DNA of 39,517 nucleotides. Origin: an uncultured Bdellovibrionales bacterium. Lineage in GTDB: Bacteria > Patescibacteriota > Minisyncoccia > Moranbacterales > UBA1568. The stretch covers positions 33,812 through 73,328 of the forward strand of contig CAZCQJ010000003.1 in the NCBI GenBank assembly GCA_964500865.1. The letters run 5' to 3'. This document shows, in pieces, positions 3,419-26,398 of the stretch. Position 1 is the stretch's first letter. The number at the start of each line of letters is the position of its first letter. The notes under the pieces are model-generated. The model saw only the letters and a program-made list of their open reading frames with translations, ran no database searches and was not told the DNA's origin. The position numbers were made by a program, and so were the translations under genes.

Positions 3419-3731
3419 GCCGAGGTAGCTCAGTGGTAGAGCAGAGGACTGAATTTCGGTCCCTCTCATAGTGATATGGGATGAGAAAAATCGGGTGAAT
3501 TCGGGGAAACCTACGTTCAGATATTCTGAATATGGCAATCTCGAGCCAACTCCTAAAGGGCAATATGGTTTTAGGAAAGGTGTAGAGACTAGTAAGTGAG
3601 TCCCAACAATACTCTTACAAAAGCGCCCGACTTCTTAGTAAAGAAGATGAGATAGTCCAATCCTTGGGGAAACTCAAGTAAGTGCGTAAAGGAAAATCCT
3701 TGTGTCGGCAGTTCGATCCTGCCCCTCGGCA
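3419..3731 (+). tRNA. tRNA-Phe(GAA) interrupted by a 241-nt group I intron in the anticodon loop (exons 3419-3450 and 3692-3731)
   Basis: The joined exons GCCGAGGTAGCTCAGTGGTAGAGCAGAGGACT + GAAAATCCTTGTGTCGGCAGTTCGATCCTGCCCCTCGGCA give a perfect cloverleaf close to E. coli tRNA-Phe: acceptor GCCGAGG/CCTCGGC, loop CTGAAAA. Confidence 0.9.
3451..3691 (+). ncRNA. Group I (IC3-like) self-splicing intron, no internal ORF
   Basis: The 5' exon ends in U, and GGACU pairs with the internal guide GGUCC (3458-3462), giving the U-G wobble of P1. The intron ends in G (3691). Core strings AAUUCGGGGAAACCUA, UAUGGCAAUCUCGAGCCAA and AAGGUGUAGAGACUAG match the Azoarcus/cyanobacterial tRNA-intron core as I recall it. 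Confidence 0.85.
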
Positions 3732-3777
3732 CAATAATGAACCCATGGTATACTGATAATATCATGGGTTTTGTTTT

Positions 3778-4470
3778 ATGAATAAAAAAGAGCAGGCAGT
3801 TAAACTTAGACAATTTGGGCTCAGCTATTCTCAGATTCAAAGCGAATTAGGTATTTCAAAAAGCACCCTCAGTCTTTGGCTAAAAACAATAGCCCTTTCT
3901 GATGAAGCCCAAGAAAAAATCAACAAGCGCGTCAATAATACTTCTCGAAAAGCTTTGATTCTCCGCAATAAAGCTCGATCGAGTGTTGTCATGAAAGAGC
4001 ATGGTGTTATTAGAAAAGAAGCTGCCAAAGAGTTCGTTCTTTATTTTCAAGATCCACTCTTTATTGCTGGAATATCCCTCTACTGGGCCGAAGGTTACAA
4101 AAAGGGTGCTTCTGGGAGTCGTTGGAAAAGTATAGATCTTGCCAATTCTGATCCTCAAATGATTCTCTTCATGGTTCATTTCTTTAAAAAGTACTTGGGT
4201 GTATCTTTGGAAAAAATGAAGATCCAAATTATTGCTCATGACAACATAGACATAGATGCATCTGTTAGGTATTGGTCTCAACTCACCGGGATACCATCGG
4301 CACAATTCATAAAAACCTCTGTTCTTAATAGAGAAAGGACTTCAAAAAACCCACGAAAACATTCCTTGACTCATGGCACTATTCACGTTAGGATAAACGA
4401 TGTCAAGCTCTTTTTTCGTCTTATTGGCTGGCTCGATGGATTACAAGATTTCTTAAAAAAGAGCGTTTAA
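3778..4470 (+). CDS. HTH-domain protein with LAGLIDADG-like core (possible free-standing homing endonuclease)
   Basis: The N-terminus LRQFGLSYSQIQSELGISKSTLSLWLK is a resolvase/sigma-r4-type HTH. The middle segment FIAGISLYWAEGYK resembles a LAGLIDADG motif followed by an alpha/beta core. The gene starts 47 nt after the intron-containing tRNA. Confidence 0.4.
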   Translation: MNKKEQAVKLRQFGLSYSQIQSELGISKSTLSLWLKTIALSDEAQEKINKRVNNTSRKALILRNKARSSVVMKEHGVIRKEAAKEFVLYFQDPLFIAGISLYWAEGYKKGASGSRWKSIDLANSDPQMILFMVHFFKKYLGVSLEKMKIQIIAHDNIDIDASVRYWSQLTGIPSAQFIKTSVLNRERTSKNPRKHSLTHGTIHVRINDVKLFFRLIGWLDGLQDFLKKSV

Positions 4471-6537: not shown

Positions 6538-6618
6538 GGGGCGGTGGTGGAATGGTATACACGCGACACTTAAAATGTTGTGCCTTACGGCTTGAGGGTT
6601 CGAGTCCCTCCCGCCCTA
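6538..6618 (+). tRNA. tRNA-Leu(UAA)
   Basis: Acceptor GGGGCGG/CCGCCCT (G1-U72), loop CTTAAAA, long variable arm, T-arm GAGGG-TTCGAGT-CCCTC. Confidence 0.85.
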
Positions 6619-6628
6619 CAAAAAACTT

Positions 6629-6985
6629 ATGCTACACTGGGATATTTACGAAATTACCTCTGAGAAACATTCTCTAAACGGGGTCATGCTCCGTGGACGT
6701 TTGCGTAAATTTTCCGAAGAACATTCACTTGATTTTTTAGTAGAAAATACTGAGGATAAACCAAATGGCGTCCGCTTTGCGGTACTTGCCGGCCAAGACT
6801 CCACTATTCTTATAGGATACCTTACGAGTATCATTCCTGACGCTGCAGTTACCTTGGTTTTACAAAGCGCTACCAATCCAGTTTTATCGAAACTCAAAGT
6901 AAACCAAGCAGACCGCTATATCCTTCAGAACTATGTCTCCTCAAGAAATATCTTATCCTATTATTGGAATGAGTCCGGGAAATAG
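6629..6985 (+). CDS. Hypothetical protein (weak acylphosphatase-like pattern), overlaps the CDPS start by 53 nt
   Basis: 118-aa ORF starting 10 nt after tRNA-Leu. GVMLRGRLRKFSEEHSLDFLVENTEDKPNGVRF loosely resembles acylphosphatase 'G.VQGV.FR......lgl.G.V.N..dG.V'. Confidence 0.35.
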   Translation: MLHWDIYEITSEKHSLNGVMLRGRLRKFSEEHSLDFLVENTEDKPNGVRFAVLAGQDSTILIGYLTSIIPDAAVTLVLQSATNPVLSKLKVNQADRYILQNYVSSRNILSYYWNESGK

Positions 6986-7571
6986 CTACTTCAAAAAAGA
7001 AACGGTTGTTTTCCTTTTGGAAAAAGTTACTAAAGACTTTGGAAGGGCTAGCGTGCTTATTCCTGATATTCCCGCTATTACTACCTATGTAGCTCTCGGT
7101 TACAGTGAGAGTCGCGCTCGAAAAGACAAAGCCATCCCTAAAGGAAATGCTCTCCGTAATAAAGTAAGCGCGGCCATGCAGGAAAATGCATTAGATGACG
7201 ACCTCGTACGCATTTTTGACTGGGCATCAGAAATTGAACCGAATATACTCTACCAAGAAAAACTCGCCTCTATTAAAAAGCTTTACTCGGAGAACAACTC
7301 ATTTCAAGAAGCTATTCGTTCTGCCACCGAAGAAGTTCTTCTGAGTTCTAAAAAACATATTGATAACCTAGAGAAGGCCGTAAGTATTGCTACACACTAC
7401 ATTCTTTCTGAATTTGCCTGCTTAGAGTTCTTGCCGAAGTATCTCGGCGTTGAAAAGGTAGTTTATATATATCACAAATCCTGGCTCGTATACGAAGATT
7501 ACATTGCTGGAAAATTTGATGGTGTTCCTAAAAATCATCTAGCATTCCTGATTATCAAGAAAGTAAGCTAA
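6933..7571 (+). CDS. tRNA-dependent cyclodipeptide synthase (CDPS), NYH-type
   Basis: IIGMSPGNSYF matches AlbC IGISAGNSYF (catalytic Ser, Asn). HYILSEFACLEF matches NYVLAEAPLF (Tyr, Glu). VYIYHKS matches LCYHID (Tyr-His). The size of 212 aa is typical. Confidence 0.8.
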   Translation: MSPQEISYPIIGMSPGNSYFKKETVVFLLEKVTKDFGRASVLIPDIPAITTYVALGYSESRARKDKAIPKGNALRNKVSAAMQENALDDDLVRIFDWASEIEPNILYQEKLASIKKLYSENNSFQEAIRSATEEVLLSSKKHIDNLEKAVSIATHYILSEFACLEFLPKYLGVEKVVYIYHKSWLVYEDYIAGKFDGVPKNHLAFLIIKKVS

Positions 7572-11886: not shown

Positions 11887-11959
11887 TGGACCCTAGCGGA
11901 CTCGAACCGCTCACCTCTCCCATGCCATGGGAGCGCTCTACCAGATGAGCTAAGGGCCC
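11887..11959 (-). tRNA. tRNA-Ala(GGC)
   Basis: Reverse complement GGGCCCTTAGCTCATCTGGTAGAGCGCTCCCATGGCATGGGAGAGGTGAGCGGTTCGAGTCCGCTAGGGTCCA. G3-U70 identity pair, loop ATGGCAT. Confidence 0.9.
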
Positions 11960-12175
11960 TTATAGAAAGGGTTTTACTTTATTTTTTAAGGCTATACCCA
12001 TTATCTGCGCTCCCATTACTTTTATTGCGAGTGCTCGTCAGATAGCTGGGGCCCTTTTAAAAGGATCTTACTTTATTTTTGTTCTTGCGACACTTATTGG
12101 CCCTCCCCGCATTCCTCTTGCGAGCATCTACTCGGATGACGAAGGCCCTTATGTAAAGGATTTTACTACTTTTTC
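11960..12175 (-). repeat. Two degenerate tandem copies (period about 93-95 nt) of tRNA-Ala plus its leader, upstream of the functional gene
   Basis: GGCCCTT(a/t)T..AAAGG.T(t/c)TTACT..TTTTT occurs at 11953-11987, 12048-12080 and 12141-12175. Copy B retains GGGCCCcAGCTaTCTG..GAGC......GGGAG but has no T-arm. Confidence 0.75.
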
Positions 12176-12325: not shown

Positions 12326-13960
12326 ATGCAAAAGACTCTCCTGGCCGCCATTCTATTTACACTCCCCTTTTCCCTACGAAAAGTACTTTTTGTGACGAAT
12401 CCACTAGCCCCGGGAGTATTCAACGAATACATGGACACCAGTGTTTTTCTTTTCGATATCCTTATTTTCCTTTTTGTTACTTATATTATATTAGAACATA
12501 TTTTGATATACAAGTCAAGTTCATGGGGATGGGTACGTGGAATGTTCCACGTGGAACAATTCTCCCCTACACAAAAAATGTTCCACGTGGAACATTTTTT
12601 TATCGCTTTGATTCTAGGTCTCAGCACTATTCTTTCCGTGATTCTTTTTGGGAGCTTTTTTCAATTATTTATTCTCGCAAAAATAGTACTCTACGGGATC
12701 TTCTTTCTCTTTGTTTACAATATCCTATTCTCGGATGTTCCACGTGGAACATTTATACACAAAAATACAGTCCAGAATGTTCCACGTGGAACATTCTTTC
12801 GTTATTCCAGTAACTATATTTGTTCCACGTGGAACAAATTAATCAAATCTACGTCAACAAACTGTTCCACGTGGAACATTTTACAGATCATTCTTTTCAT
12901 CAGTACTATTTCTCAAATACTGCTTGGTATTATACAATTACTCCTTCAGAGATCCATTGGTCTGCGCTGGCTCGGTGAACAAGTTCTTAACGTCAATATT
13001 CCTGGAGTTTCAACTATTATTATTAACAAGGTTGAATTCTTACGAGCCTATGGCACCTTTCTGAATCCAAATATCTAGGCAGGATACCTTATATCTAGCC
13101 TATTACTATTCTTTTTACTTAAAAAATGTTCCACGTGGAACAATGGAGATCCTTTTTCCACAATAAATGTTCCACGTGGAACATTTATACACGAGAATAC
13201 AACTGAAGATGTTCCACGTGGAACAATGGAGACTCTTTTTATTGGTATTATTGGTATCGGTATTATTATCTCTTTCTCTAAGGTGGCCTGGCTTGTTTAT
13301 GGATTGTTTCTTATTGAACATTTTTGGAATGTTCCACGTGGAACATTCTTTTCAAAACTAAATACTAACATTGTTCCACGTGGAACAATTCTTAAAAAAG
13401 TCACTGACTTTTGTTCCACGTGGAACACTCGTAAAATATTGCTCAAAAAATGTTCCACGTGGAACATTTTGATATTTTCTCTCATTATTCTTGGGGGAGT
13501 ATTCTTCCTTTCTCAAATAGACTTCTACTATTATATAGTACAACCTATATTAGAACGTAAATTACAGTATTTGTCAATACTTAGTATACCGAGTCTACAT
13601 ATATGGCTTGGCTCTGGCTTTGGAGGCTACATCTCGTGGCTGAGCACTTCGGGATTAGTAGAGGAGAGCTTCCAGTTACAGCCAGTGCATAATTTCTTCC
13701 TCATGGCCCTCCTTGAAGTCGGTATTCTTCCTATTCTTACCCTTCTGTTCTTTTTTTGGCAGGGGATACGCCGGTTTTTGAAAAACACTCTCACTATCGC
13801 AAAGGAGGCTGGAGTACAGTCTTTAATCTTTGGTGTAGTTCTTCTTGGCTCCTTTGATCACTATTTTTGGGATATTGAAGCAACCCAAATTATCCTTGGG
13901 TTTATACTCGTGATTTTTGTAGGTATCTCTAAAAAAACGTTGTACAAAAATAGTCAGTAG
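12326..13960 (+). pseudogene. Wzy/O-antigen-ligase-like membrane protein. One 545-codon frame with four palindrome-array insertions and one in-frame TAG (13076-13078)
   Basis: ORFs 12326..13078 and 13226..13960 share a frame, and I translated 13079-13225 without a stop. Wzy_C-like segments: RAYGTFLNPNI*AGYL, SFSKVAWLVYG, GSGFGGY, PVHNFFLMALLEVGI, which parallel the paralog at 17244..18497. Confidence 0.65.
12543..13466. repeat. 13 identical copies of the 16-bp palindrome TGTTCCACGTGGAACA (parS-like) in 4 clusters
   Basis: 16-mer starts: 12543, 12579 | 12736, 12778, 12821, 12863 | 13127, 13168, 13210 | 13330, 13372, 13412, 13451. Within-cluster spacings are 36; 42, 43, 42; 41, 42; 42, 40, 39. 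No other copy in the window. It differs at one base from B. subtilis parS, TGTTCCACGTGAAACA. Confidence 0.9.
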
Positions 13961-23593: not shown

Positions 23594-25045
23594 ATGGACA
23601 AAGAAACTCTCTGGAAATCAGCCTTGGCTCATATTGAACTTTCAATTTCGAAAGCTAATTTTGTGACCTGGTTTAAAAATACCAGTATCTTTGAACATAC
23701 GGACAACGAAGTGAGTATTACTGTCCCTAACGGGTTTGCTAAGGAATGGCTCGAAAATAAGTATAATCACTACATTCTCCAGGCCCTCCAGTCAGTAGAC
23801 CCCTCTGTTACTCGTATTCGCTGCGTTATCAACCCAAGCCCAAACACAGCGCCCAAACTCGATTCTGTCCAGGTAGCTCCCGCACAACAGCAGACACAGA
23901 CATTTCCCGGTGCGCCATTTCAGGGCACAAAAACGGTTGACTTTACACGAAAAAAGATTATCGAGCAGCCAAATTTTCGCCAAGAAGCTGCCCCAGCAAC
24001 CGCTGTTTTTCACCAAAGCAACCTTAATAACCGCTATCATTTCGAGAATTTTATCGTAGCAGAGAACAACGAACTCGCTCGAGCCGCCTGCATGGCCGTA
24101 GCTGATAACCTTGGTGGCGCCTATAATCCACTCTTTATTTACGGGGGCGTCGGTCTCGGAAAAACTCACCTTTTGCAGTCCATTGGGAACAGTGTCGCCA
24201 AAAAACACCCCGAAAAACGCATTAAGTACATTTCTTCCGAAAAATTTACTCGCGAGCTTGTCGAAAGCATCAAAAACCAGAAGATTGATCAATTTAAAGA
24301 CTACTATGAGCAGATGGATCTGCTTATTATTGATGATATTCAATTTCTTTCGGGCCGCGAAAAGACTCAGAACGAATTTTTTCAGATCTTTAACACCCTC
24401 TACCAGATTAACAAGCAAATCGTTATTTCGAGCGACCGCCCACCAAAGGCGATCCCTACCCTCGAAGAACGGCTCCGTTCCCGCTTTGAAGGGGGTATGA
24501 TTACCGACATTAGCCGCCCCTCCCTGGAGACCCGCCTCGCCATATTAGAATCTAAAGTGCTCGAGCGTGGCCTTATAATCGACAAAGATGCTCTTTTTTA
24601 TATCGCTGACAACGTTTCTCAGAATATCCGCGAACTCGAAGGCGCCCTAAATCGCGTTATCGCTTACAGTGAGTTTCAGAAAATTCCTGCCAACCTCGAA
24701 AATACCACAAAAATCCTTGACCAACTCCTTGAGAGTAACAAAAAGACTGTTTCGATCGACGATGTATTCTCACATATTTGCGATCGTTTCCAAATTTCCC
24801 GAGAAGATCTTATTAAAAAGGGACGAAAAAAAGAAGTTGTGTACCCTCGCCAGATTATGATGTATCTTCTTCGCACCGAACTCCAGAATTCATTCTCGTC
24901 CATTGGTGAGGTTTTTAATGGGCGTGACCACACTACTGTCCTTCATGCTGTCGAAAAAATTGAACGGGAAAAGGGAACAAATGAAAAAATAAAGGCTGAT
25001 ATTCTTCACCTTAAAGAGGTTCTCTACTACACTCCACCTGAATAA
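23594..25045 (+). CDS. dnaA: Chromosomal replication initiator DnaA
   Basis: Walker A GGVGLGKTHL, Walker B LLIIDDIQF, sensor and DnaA signature, C-terminal DNA-binding domain (RDHTTVLHA). Confidence 0.97.
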   Translation: MDKETLWKSALAHIELSISKANFVTWFKNTSIFEHTDNEVSITVPNGFAKEWLENKYNHYILQALQSVDPSVTRIRCVINPSPNTAPKLDSVQVAPAQQQTQTFPGAPFQGTKTVDFTRKKIIEQPNFRQEAAPATAVFHQSNLNNRYHFENFIVAENNELARAACMAVADNLGGAYNPLFIYGGVGLGKTHLLQSIGNSVAKKHPEKRIKYISSEKFTRELVESIKNQKIDQFKDYYEQMDLLIIDDIQFLSGREKTQNEFFQIFNTLYQINKQIVISSDRPPKAIPTLEERLRSRFEGGMITDISRPSLETRLAILESKVLERGLIIDKDALFYIADNVSQNIRELEGALNRVIAYSEFQKIPANLENTTKILDQLLESNKKTVSIDDVFSHICDRFQISREDLIKKGRKKEVVYPRQIMMYLLRTELQNSFSSIGEVFNGRDHTTVLHAVEKIEREKGTNEKIKADILHLKEVLYYTPPE

Positions 25046-25273
25046 CCTTGTATAAACCCCTTCTTTCTTGTGTATCCTGTGTATAAAAAACAGTCCTTTG
25101 TGTATAAAAACCTCATTTTCTCACCCCACCTCATTTTACCCACATATATGCACCGAGTTATCCTTTTTAGAAAATCCGTCCACAAAGCCAACAAAACCGC
25201 TTATCCACTTATACACCCTGTAATAACAATAATAAGATTTTAAAAAAGAATACTTACTTTATCACCTACACAT
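25046..25273. other. Candidate oriC (DnaA-box cluster plus AT-rich stretch) between dnaA and dnaN
   Basis: TGTGTATAA at 25078-25086 and 25099-25107 (exact TTATNCACA reversed), TTATCCACT at 25201-25209, TTATACACC at 25209-25217, weaker boxes at 25048 and 25069. AT-rich run at 25221-25270. Confidence 0.6.
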
Positions 25274-26398
25274 ATGAAAATTATTTGTACACAAGAAAAT
25301 CTTCAGAGATACCTCTCATTTATGGATCGAGTAATCGTGAAGCAGGCGAGCCTACCGATCTTAGGAAATATTCTTTTTCAGGTAGAAGTAGGACGCGTAA
25401 AACTTTCAGCTACAAATCTTGAAATTGGGGTAACTGGGTACCTTGGGGCAAAGGTTTTAGAGGATGGACTCATTGCTCTTCCGGCAAGAATTATTGGAAA
25501 TTTTGTGAGTAATCTTCCAGTAGGTGACGTGGTGGAAATTAGCACGGAGGACAAAAAGGTTTTTTTGAGTAGCGGAAAACACACACTGTCTATTTTTGGG
25601 GTGGATGGTAAAGAATTTCCACTTATCCCAAAACTTTCTTTTGAAAAAGCATATACGTTACATGGAGAGCAATTTAAAACTGCGCTCCAGAAGGTTTTTT
25701 ATGCCGTTAGCGTAAATACTATTCGTCCAGAATTAACAGGGGTTTATTGTAAATTAACAGATGGCGTGTTAAAACTTGTTGCTACTGACAGTTTCCGTCT
25801 TGTGGAGGAGAGCGTATTTGGCGTTCAGGGTGATGGAGAGGAAGAAGACATGACACGGGGTATTATTGTTCCACTTAGTACTCTTCAGGAGGTAGCACGT
25901 ATTATTACCCCAGAAACAAAAGAGTTGCAATTGGTTACTCATGAGAACCAGATATTCTTTAATATCGAGGGGGTAGAGGTAACTTCTCGCCTTATTAACG
26001 GAAAATTTCCGGATTACGAGCAGATTATACCAACAAGCTTCTCGGATAGTCTCGAATTCCAAAAAAGCGACCTCCAGAGAGCGCTGAAGATTTCGGCAGG
26101 GCTTTCGAGCTACACATCAGGAGAGGTGGCGCTTATTTGTGATAAAGAGAAGCAGGAGATCCGACTGGTATCGCGCTCACACGACGTTGGTGAAAATGTA
26201 AATGCTATTTCCTTTGAGAATCTTCAGGGAGAGAAAACCTGCACATTCCTTTTTCAGGCCCGCTTCCTTCAGGAATACCTTGGGAGTATAGCAAGTGATA
26301 TTGTGCGTTTCTCGTATAATTCAGAGCAAACACCTTTACTCTTTGAAGAGCATGGAGAAGTAAGTGGTCGCTCAATTATTATGCCAATACGAAAGTAG
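25274..26398 (+). CDS. dnaN: DNA polymerase III beta sliding clamp
   Basis: 374 aa with three-domain clamp pattern (ATDSFRLV, LINGKFPDYEQIIP). Downstream of dnaA. Confidence 0.95.
   Translation: MKIICTQENLQRYLSFMDRVIVKQASLPILGNILFQVEVGRVKLSATNLEIGVTGYLGAKVLEDGLIALPARIIGNFVSNLPVGDVVEISTEDKKVFLSSGKHTLSIFGVDGKEFPLIPKLSFEKAYTLHGEQFKTALQKVFYAVSVNTIRPELTGVYCKLTDGVLKLVATDSFRLVEESVFGVQGDGEEEDMTRGIIVPLSTLQEVARIITPETKELQLVTHENQIFFNIEGVEVTSRLINGKFPDYEQIIPTSFSDSLEFQKSDLQRALKISAGLSSYTSGEVALICDKEKQEIRLVSRSHDVGENVNAISFENLQGEKTCTFLFQARFLQEYLGSIASDIVRFSYNSEQTPLLFEEHGEVSGRSIIMPIRK

Follow-up and report, generated by a model that had tools for sequence, protein, structure and literature searches.

Results

A tRNA-Phe gene split by a group I intron

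We analysed a stretch of 39,517 nucleotides (nt) from an uncultured bacterium of the Patescibacteriota whose record is titled Bdellovibrionales (assembly GCA_964500865.1, contig CAZCQJ010000003.1, positions 33,812 to 73,328), which we refer to throughout as the window. Here a gene for tRNA-Phe(GAA) occupies positions 3419-3731 of the + strand, with a group I intron of 241 nt (3451-3691) inserted after U33, and is followed on the same strand by a free-standing open reading frame (ORF) at 3778-4470. The 5' exon (3419-3450, +) supplies tRNA positions 1-33, comprising the 5' strand of the acceptor stem, the D arm, the 5' strand of the anticodon stem, C32 and U33. The 3' exon (3692-3731, +) supplies positions 34-73, with the anticodon GAA, A37, A38, the 3' strand of the anticodon stem, the variable loop, the T arm, the 3' strand of the acceptor stem and the discriminator A; CCA is not encoded. 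The initial annotation of this DNA, made from the letters alone, had read the two exon halves as a textbook tRNA-Phe, and ARAGORN indeed folded the in-silico spliced sequence into a clean 73-nt tRNA-Phe(GAA) cloverleaf.

When introns were allowed, ARAGORN also called tRNA-Phe(GAA) on the genomic sequence, with an insertion given as i(34,241). In its default mode the program found eight tRNAs in the window and missed the interrupted gene. Within the 39.5-kb window, to which our search of this genome was confined, ARAGORN detected no other tRNA-Phe gene. In contrast to tRNA-Phe, the tRNA-Leu(UAA) gene at 6538-6619 (+) has no intron; this tRNA is the classical host of group I introns in bacteria.

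A covariance search with the Rfam family RF00028 (Intron_gpI) matched the full model (1-253) to window positions 3441-3679 with 75.3 bits (E 1.7e-17), well above the curated gathering score of 50 bits, and Intron_gpI was the sole non-tRNA RNA family that Rfam detected in the window. The 241-nt intron contains no ORF on the + strand.

The same interruption recurs in many genomes

In a single DNA-pattern scan of 185,579 species-representative genomes, using the guide TTTCGGTCC, a gap of 20-50 and the J3/4-P4 core AATTNNGGGAAACC, we recovered 56 loci. Apart from four chance matches, each locus (52/56) is a tRNA-Phe gene with the interruption at the same site, and 48 of these 52 are complete, with introns of 217-283 nt that each carry U-1 and a terminal guanosine (omega-G). 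A broad core pattern, GGGAAACC..GGCAA..GAGCCAA, had also been tried on viral contigs; it gave at least 120 matches with unrelated phage introns and was abandoned as too unspecific. The window gene and 47 interrupted tRNA-Phe genes were combined in one alignment of 48 genes (A2), in which the acceptor and T stems of the tRNA covary.

Most of the loci come from records titled as Patescibacteria (Moranii-, Falkow-, Magasanikii-, Uhr-, Kuenen-, Buchanan- and Berkelbacteria). Several metagenome-assembled genomes (MAGs) titled Gammaproteobacteria or Bdellovibrionales (e.g. L124, L127, L131, L141 and L148) have tRNA-Phe exons identical to those of Patescibacteria loci, and since their introns and ORFs match as well, these titles are probably unreliable. 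The nearest intron in the scan set, at 79% identity, belongs to a Moraniibacteriota MAG (L132) whose gene order, Phe-ORF-Met, is that of the window. The intron is old and has been inherited largely vertically within Patescibacteria. Group I introns in Patescibacteria tRNA genes are reportedly also the subject of a 2025 preprint by Nakagawa et al.

Two loci stand out by their length. In L244 the Intron_gpI match spans 594 nt (1635-2228), and in L157 (QKEW01000008.1, ~377-1076) ARAGORN placed a tRNA-Leu(CAA) with a 627-nt intron directly after the interrupted tRNA-Phe. These longer introns may hold inserts.

Splice sites and intron boundary

At the 5' splice site the exon sequence GGACU (3446-3450) pairs with the guide GGUCC (3458-3462) to form P1 (3446-3462, +), with U3450.G3458 (U33.G) at the junction itself. 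Immediately 5' of this guide, the P10 guide UUUC (3454-3457, +) is complementary to the GAAA with which the 3' exon begins, so that the combined guide 5'-UUUCGGUCC-3' (3454-3462) spans the ligated junction GGACU/GAAA as P1 plus P10 (slashes mark splice sites). The ligated exons are predicted to read ...GGACU/GAAAAUCC..., also written ...GCAGAGGACU/GAAAAUCCUUG.... The P1 pairs are 99% kept in the 48-gene alignment, in which the guide sequence is fixed by the scan pattern. The last intron base (3691, +) is the omega-G, which is G in all 48 homologues and is always followed by GAAAA; both U-1 and the terminal G are thus present in 48/48.

A GAA repeated at both junctions would leave room for a splice site shifted by 3 nt (3453/3454). 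This alternative was ruled out by the homologues, whose introns begin with GAA, GAU, GGU or GGA, are always preceded by ...ACU and always end with the G before GAAAA. Because the introns that do not start with GAA permit no other solution, the boundary is fixed at U33/G34. The comparison thereby settles in its favour the choice of 3450/3451 and 3691/3692 that the initial annotation had made from the U...G rule, and the P1 helix, its U-G pair and the terminal G that had been read there in the one sequence are shared by the whole set.

The intron fold is conserved and covaries

RNAalifold predicted 70 pairs from the alignment, 36 of them with compensatory changes. Next, a complete group I model that includes the P3/P7 pseudoknot and P8 was drawn up, and its pairs were counted over the 48 genes. 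Standard pairs were formed in 96.6% of cells, versus 83.0% in column shuffles, and sliding the 3' partners by 1-3 columns lowered pairing to 31-49%; none of 500 column shuffles reached any of five pairing measures. Compensatory changes occurred in 41 of 77 pairs, within P2, P3, P5, P6a, an extra hairpin described below, P8 and P9. All core helices from P3 to P9, including the P3/P7 pseudoknot, are present. Every pair covaries in P2, P6a and P9 and some do in P3, P5 and P8; P4 and P7 are invariant and therefore uninformative on pairing by covariation.

Reading along the intron (all features on the + strand), the P2 hairpin (3464-3481) has compensatory changes in all seven pairs and carries the GNRA loop GUGA (3471-3474), the homologues having GUAA, GAAA, GCAA or GUGA. 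The 5' strand of P3, UCGGGUG (3491-3497), forms seven pairs with CGCCCGA (3624-3630) that are 99.4% paired, the two outer ones alternating between U-A and C-G among the 48 genes. P4 (3501-3506 with 3539-3544) is invariant in the 48 genes, the third pair of P5 (3510-3512 with 3533-3535) covaries, and a distal hairpin beyond P5, UUCAGA/UCUGAA, was read by eye within 3501-3544. P6 (GCC with GGU) and P6a (3551-3557 with 3570-3576) together occupy 3545-3581, with all seven P6a pairs compensatory. The guanosine-binding helix P7, which is pseudoknotted with P3, joins GAGACUA with its bulged A (3585-3591) to UAGUCC (3653-3658) in six invariant pairs that are 100% paired in the 48 sequences. In the P8 hairpin (3631-3646; CUUCUU/AAGAAG, loop AGUA) five of six pairs are compensatory, and a slip of the MAFFT register in some rows holds its pairing down to 78.5%. 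Finally, P9 (3663-3678) is closed by a GAAA tetraloop (3669-3672) and shows compensatory changes in all six pairs.

The initial annotation had placed a group I intron at U33/G34, and the covariance model, ARAGORN and the covariation across 48 homologues all back this placement. Judged by its sequence conservation, the tRNA-Phe gene is interrupted by a real and complete group I intron with a conserved architecture, for which splicing activity is predicted on the same grounds.

The intron belongs to a catalogued type

According to Williams 2020 (bioRxiv 10.1101/2020.01.27.920355), a scan of 80,413 bacterial genomes for tRNA introns raised the number of tRNA/site combinations from four to 21, the classical four being Leu.3Ug, Arg.5Ug, fMet.2Ug and Ile2.5Ug, all of subgroup IC3, and metagenomic assemblies of unnamed phyla contained 0.49 interrupted tRNA genes per genome. 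The accompanying seed alignment includes an intron named Mba55.Phe.2Ug. The window intron is 74% identical to this seed, its best match of seven, followed by Lys.2Ug (71%) and Asn.4Ug (69%). It also has the characters that define Phe.2Ug: a tRNA-Phe host, insertion as CU/g...g/GAAAA after loop base 2, U-1 and omega-G. We therefore assign the 241-nt, Rfam-matched intron at 3451-3691 (+) to the Phe.2Ug type, as a further case of a catalogued kind and not a new one. The insertion site is itself classical, since position 2 (33/34) in Williams's numbering is the tRNA-fMet site (fMet.2Ug). The initial annotation was right that tRNA-Phe is not among the classical hosts, and it overstated the novelty of the intron, because the type was catalogued in 2020, at a site shared with tRNA-fMet.

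IC3 is among the group I subgroups found in bacteria (Hausner et al. 2014, PMC3984707), and the initial annotation had labelled the intron IC3 and described its core strings as nearly identical to those of the Azoarcus tRNA-Ile and cyanobacterial tRNA-Leu introns. This likeness is borne out: the window strings GAAACCUA, UAUGGCAA, CGAGCCAA and GGUGUAGAGACUAG all occur in the Azoarcus tRNA-Ile seed, and the one cyanobacterial tRNA-Leu seed that we compared has close variants, e.g. GGUGCAGAGACUAG. The P3-P8 core is very near that of classical IC3 introns, the Azoarcus, Synechococcus and fMet seeds being 63-68% identical to the window intron. In the periphery, L2 (GUGA), L9 (GAAA) and a receptor-like motif at P5 are IC3-like, their contacts being assigned by analogy with Azoarcus. 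The canonical 11-nt tetraloop receptor motif is CCUAAG...UAUGG. The P5 junction of the window reads CCUACG...UAUGG, which is tetraloop-receptor-like; CCUAAG is found in some homologues, and the entire CCUAAG...UAUGG string in the Azoarcus seed of Williams's alignment.

One structural element departs from the IC3 plan. Between the 5' strand of P7 and the 3' strand of P3 (P3') lies an extra, P7.1-like hairpin (3592-3618, +) with compensatory changes in all five pairs and a conserved loop, UGAGUCCCAACAAUA; the Rfam Intron_gpI alignment treats this stretch as an insertion. In the IC3 subgroup scheme there is no helix between P7 and P3' (P7.1/P7.2 absent). The Phe.2Ug, Lys.2Ug and Asn.4Ug seeds have the extra hairpin, at whose site helices are also drawn in Williams's consensus structure; it is absent from the Leu.3Ug, Arg.5Ug, fMet.2Ug and Ile2.5Ug seeds. 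Because the classical tRNA introns lack it, the strict IC3 label is valid for the core only. The initial IC3 assignment accordingly stands as far as the core strings and the identity values go and fails at this covarying hairpin.

The loop of the extra hairpin, UGAG(U)CCCAACAAUA, is 15-17 nt long and nearly invariant in the 48 species (alignment columns 249-309) as well as in the Phe.2Ug seed, a conservation that is unusually strong for a peripheral loop. AGUCC within it was considered as a second guide for the 5' exon and dropped, as some homologues read GAGCCC there.

A free-standing ORF is linked to the interrupted tRNA gene and is repeatedly lost

The ORF at 3778-4470 (+), which went unremarked in the initial annotation, encodes 230 amino acids (aa) and starts 46 nt after tRNA-Phe and ~130 bp from the intron insertion site. 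Its product has a helix-turn-helix (HTH) at residues 7-37, then a long helix, and in its C-terminal part a domain (~90-230) that has no family assignment. The sole Pfam match is HTH_23, at the N-terminus. The ORF has over 631 homologues, ~227-236 aa long, which Patescibacteria records describe as 'hypothetical' or 'helix-turn-helix domain-containing'.

Between the tRNA and the ORF, a hairpin with arms GAACCCATGG...CCATGGGTT followed by a T-run (3739-3771, +) ends 6 nt before the ATG and contains a promoter-like TG-extended -10-like box, TGGTATACT (3746-3754, +). In related loci (L178-L252) the arms of the corresponding hairpin covary (GAACCCATG, GAACCTATG, GAACTTACG, AAACCCGTG), a TATAAT-like box is always enclosed and a T-run follows. 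The hairpin could be a terminator for the tRNA, an operator, or both.

Linkage was assessed from both sides. Starting from the intron, in ~20 of the 48 species loci an ORF homologue separates tRNA-Phe from the tRNA gene that follows it (Pro, Met or Gly), and ~24 loci with enough downstream DNA have none; presence was judged in the spacer after tRNA-Phe, and a copy may exist elsewhere in those genomes. Starting from the ORF, a metagenome scan with its peptide motifs yielded 80 loci, in 64 of which matches to an interrupted-tRNA-Phe profile lie beside the ORF. In all 46 loci that have a homologue of at least 43% identity and enough upstream DNA, an interrupted tRNA-Phe stands 55-89 nt upstream on the same strand. 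Among more distant homologues (34-40% identity) there are some with an interrupted tRNA-Phe before or just after the ORF.

At the ORF, loci whose tRNA-Phe exons are identical are set apart by a clean insertion or deletion of ~700 bp. In L124 the ORF is reduced to its first ~35 and last ~55 bases, fused together, and in L141 the upstream hairpin is all that remains of the ORF region. Because the intron is intact in loci that lack the ORF or retain mere remnants of it, the intron needs no ORF in cis. Most probably the ORF is a selfish DNA-binding gene that can be dispensed with, and not a factor needed by the intron.

What the ORF might encode

Sequence searches of Pfam, NCBIfam, PHROGs and PDB with the ORF or a profile of its close homologues returned HTH matches only. 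AlphaFold models were obtained for the full-length ORF (pLDDT 87) and for the domain alone on a diverse alignment (pLDDT 92), and Foldseek gave no convincing fold match for the full-length model in PDB and BFVD or for the domain model in PDB. The alpha-beta-beta-alpha-beta-beta-alpha arrangement of LAGLIDADG proteins was not seen, the domain model having extra helices between its strands.

An exhaustive HMMER search with the domain gathered 1,865 clusters at 50% identity. The domain occurs singly or, in 8 of the 150 top relatives, as two full copies. These two-copy proteins (P0135, P0138, P0139, P0147, P0149, P0156, P0160 and P0199) are 396-576 aa long and rich in Ala and Arg, unlike Patescibacteria proteins, so that the family may reach beyond that phylum; P0156 has a second HTH region.

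In the diverse alignment (A3) the only invariant residues are E105, G106, N123, W166 and G200. The best genuine PDB match of its profile is I-DmoI, at a weak E of 0.013, in which LYWAEG.K...NSDP...(helix) of the ORF aligns with GLYVAEGDK...NKNK...(helix) at residues 112-147, the second LAGLIDADG motif. This motif contains E117, which we take to be one of the two catalytic residues of I-DmoI. A direct hhalign comparison of the domain with I-DmoI gave 61% probability over 37 columns, for an I-DmoI sequence that agrees with the fragments in the PDB match. No Pfam LAGLIDADG family was matched at threshold, and LAGLIDADG_3 appeared only below threshold, in two two-domain relatives (E 0.027-0.082) and in 2 of 46 domain segments. 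The motif, the invariant acidic residue and the one- or two-domain architecture favour a LAGLIDADG affiliation, and the predicted topology and the fold search point the other way. ORF 3778-4470 may encode a homing endonuclease of a divergent, LAGLIDADG-like kind that moves together with the intron.

Other features of the window

Further along the window, directly after a tRNA-Cys/tRNA-Leu(UAA) pair, lies a gene for a cyclodipeptide synthase (6933-7571, +; Pfam CDPS, E 2.7e-28), a type of enzyme that uses charged tRNAs as substrates. Three direct repeats of ~33 nt, GGGCCCTTATAGAAAGGGTTTTACTTTATTTTT, each consisting of a hairpin and a T-run, recur with a spacing of 94-95 nt at 11954-12175, beside tRNA-Ala. 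The stretch 12543-13466 (37% GC, without a convincing gene) holds 13 perfect copies of the 16-bp palindrome TGTTCCACGTGGAACA in clusters with a spacing of ~40-42 nt, where none is expected by chance; this array could consist of protein-binding sites or be a miniature repeat element. Cumulative GC skew reaches its minimum and changes sign at ~24000-26000, which could mark a replication origin or terminus or reflect no more than a switch in gene orientation.

Discussion

An intact intron and a dispensable neighbour

The explanation that best accounts for these observations jointly is that a complete intron of a catalogued type, maintained by selection, lies next to a linked, dispensable and possibly nuclease-encoding ORF, to which we give a probability of roughly 0.85. 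Several points weigh against it. The scan pattern fixed the guide and J3/4-P4, so P1 and P4 were unable to vary in the comparison set, which is moreover biased towards close relatives, and the activity of the intron is read entirely from conservation. The window represents 39.5 kb of the genome, and a second, uninterrupted tRNA-Phe may exist. As for the ORF, it reaches no nuclease family model at threshold, and the top 50 Foldseek PDB hits of its domain model include no LAGLIDADG structure, the best being OmpA-like with TM 0.38-0.44. Some distant homologues, furthermore, adjoin tRNA-Glu or, in L233 and L257, a tRNA-Phe that has no intron and a different anticodon arm; the wider ORF family is for this reason tRNA-adjacent and not intron-specific.

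By analogy with the established group I pathway, we infer a two-step, guanosine-initiated splicing reaction that would yield mature tRNA-Phe. The guide UUUCGGUCC would pair with GGACU at the end of the 5' exon to form P1, placing U33 in the U.G wobble, and a free guanosine held in P7 would attack the 3450/3451 bond. The UUUC of the guide would then hold GAAA of the 3' exon (P10) while G3691 takes the place of the free guanosine in P7, and attack by the 3'-OH of U33 after G3691 would join the exons into a tRNA-Phe of 73 nt, whose anticodon loop reads CUGAAAA and to which CCA would be added later. In the structure of the Azoarcus intron the P2 and P9 loops are arranged as a clamp, and here the fold is probably clamped likewise, through a GNRA loop on P2 and a GAAA loop on P9.

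Alternative explanations

That the view is limited to 39.5 kb leaves room for a second tRNA-Phe, and with it for the idea that the interrupted gene is a dead pseudogene carrying an inactive intron relic while a working tRNA-Phe lies elsewhere; the P5/J5 motif of the window, CCUACG where the canonical motif has CCUAAG, could be taken as a sign of such decay. A relic would be expected to decay throughout, yet both exons are perfect, the stems covary across 48 species, and the U.G pair, omega-G, P7, every core helix and 41 compensatory pairs are kept. In addition, closed Patescibacteria genomes had tRNAs for all amino acids, some of them with group I introns (PMC8172020). We regard a relic as very improbable. 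It is the ORF, rather than the intron, on which the other alternatives turn, beginning with the proposal that it encodes a maturase required by the intron, so that splicing would depend on protein. Some LAGLIDADG proteins act as maturases, and the weakly LAGLIDADG-like domain, the very tight linkage of the ORF to the interrupted tRNA-Phe in position and strand, and the nearly invariant loop of the extra hairpin, a candidate protein-binding site, would all suit this role. About half of the intron loci, however, lack the ORF or have remnants of it, and yet their core helices, extra hairpin and splice-site features are intact, and distant members of the family adjoin tRNA genes without an intron. 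A required maturase is accordingly improbable, if less so than a relic.

A stronger competitor is an ordinary HTH regulator or housekeeping DNA-binding protein, whose place beside tRNA-Phe would reflect nothing other than the gene order of the lineage. Pfam, NCBIfam and PHROGs recognise the HTH alone, no nuclease fold was recovered, and the conserved hairpin/palindrome overlaps a promoter-like site in the manner of an autoregulatory operator. A regulator of this sort sits less easily with the repeated deletion of the ORF between close genomes with identical tRNA-Phe exons, with the tRNA gene that always adjoins the family even though its identity and side vary (Phe before, Phe after, Glu), with the occurrence of single and tandem two-domain forms, and with an invariant E-G in register with the catalytic motif of I-DmoI. 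Because of these deletions, the tRNA adjacency, the domain forms and the E-G motif, a selfish site-specific element fits better, and we rate the regulator as possible, though on the unlikely side.

A tentative two-part mobile unit

Intron and ORF might together constitute a two-part mobile unit, in which the ORF family, comprising ~1,900 clusters at 50% identity and joining an HTH to a domain of ~140 aa, would be unrecognised homing endonucleases, of very divergent LAGLIDADG type or of a new fold, that cut intron-less tRNA-Phe genes. This is a tentative proposal, which we consider well short of even odds. The endonuclease would target the intron-less anticodon-arm DNA, an inverted repeat GAGGA-CTGAAAA-TCCTT that would suit a dimeric enzyme; the putative target reads GCAGAGGACTGAAAATCCTTGTG, or as a duplex contains GAGGACTGAAAATCCTT. 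The intron would split this target near its centre and so protect its own allele, and since the ORF starts ~130 bp from the insertion site, it could be co-converted with the intron. The ORF remnants would then be the visible traces of a cycle of invasion, decay and loss. The locus has the layout of collaborative homing, namely an ORF-less intron and a nearby free-standing gene, with the intron persisting without the gene. Among the loci recovered there was no intron-less tRNA-Phe allele with the same anticodon arm. If the proposal is true, a Patescibacteria tRNA gene would be the seat of collaborative homing.

Significance

Default tRNA finders miss the gene, so that tRNA-Phe can seem to be absent from genomes of this group, and group I introns in some tRNAs of closed Patescibacteria genomes have indeed hampered tRNA detection (Lui et al. 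2021, PMC8172020). Awareness of the Phe.2Ug type prevents false calls of a 'missing tRNA' and the lowered completeness scores that go with them. If this is the sole tRNA-Phe gene, translation would rely on a ribozyme. The 48-species covariation set offers a ready structural model that includes the extra hairpin. The intron itself is of modest interest, and the linked ORF family, which is large, unannotated, tRNA-adjacent and repeatedly lost, and perhaps a new or very divergent homing endonuclease, could be the one lead here with potential novelty.

Comparison with known systems

Like the classical IC3 tRNA introns (Azoarcus tRNA-Ile, cyanobacterial tRNA-Leu(UAA), tRNA-fMet and tRNA-Arg(CCU)), the window intron is a small ORF-less ribozyme of the anticodon loop, with P1-P10 formed from the anticodon arm, a GNRA loop on P2, a GAAA loop on P9 and near-identical J3/4-P4, P6 and J6/7-P7 strings; the fMet intron even shares the 33/34 site. 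It differs from them in its host tRNA, in the extra hairpin between P7 and P3', which they lack, and in the sequence of P3. The likeness to the Phe.2Ug seed is closer, extending beyond the tRNA-Phe host, the insertion after the second anticodon-loop base (U33), U-1 and omega-G to the extra hairpin with the same loop, UGAGUCCCAACAAUAAU (ugagucccaacaauaau), and to a P3 of the form (C/U)(U/C)GGGUG...CGCCC(A/G)(G/A), whereas the seed has its own anticodon stem (exon ...GCCCU, guide GGGGC) and a much shorter P9. The text of Williams 2020, in the part available, makes no mention of a gene neighbouring the Phe.2Ug intron.

With I-DmoI and other LAGLIDADG enzymes the ORF shares the local LYWAEG motif, the invariant E-G and the existence of one- and two-domain forms; it differs in having no Pfam LAGLIDADG match, in the extra helices between its strands and in that Foldseek retrieved no LAGLIDADG structure for it. 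Another endonuclease associated with a bacterial tRNA intron, I-Ssp6803I, is a PD-(D/E)XK enzyme. It is encoded in the tRNA-fMet intron of Synechocystis (Bonocora and Shub 2001, cited in PMC3984707). Whereas I-Ssp6803I is thus encoded within its intron, ORF 3778-4470 lies outside the tRNA gene and combines an HTH with a C-terminal domain without a family.

The arrangement at the window locus comes closest to collaborative homing, which has been described for two phage systems (Hausner et al. 2014, PMC3984707). In both cases an ORF-less intron is accompanied by a separately transcribed, dispensable gene close by, here at ~130 bp. The phage systems, which are reportedly F-CphI/psbA of cyanophage S-PM2 and MobE/nrdA of phage Aeh1, concern protein genes of phages, whereas the present pair resides on a bacterial chromosome and brings together a tRNA gene and a putative nuclease.

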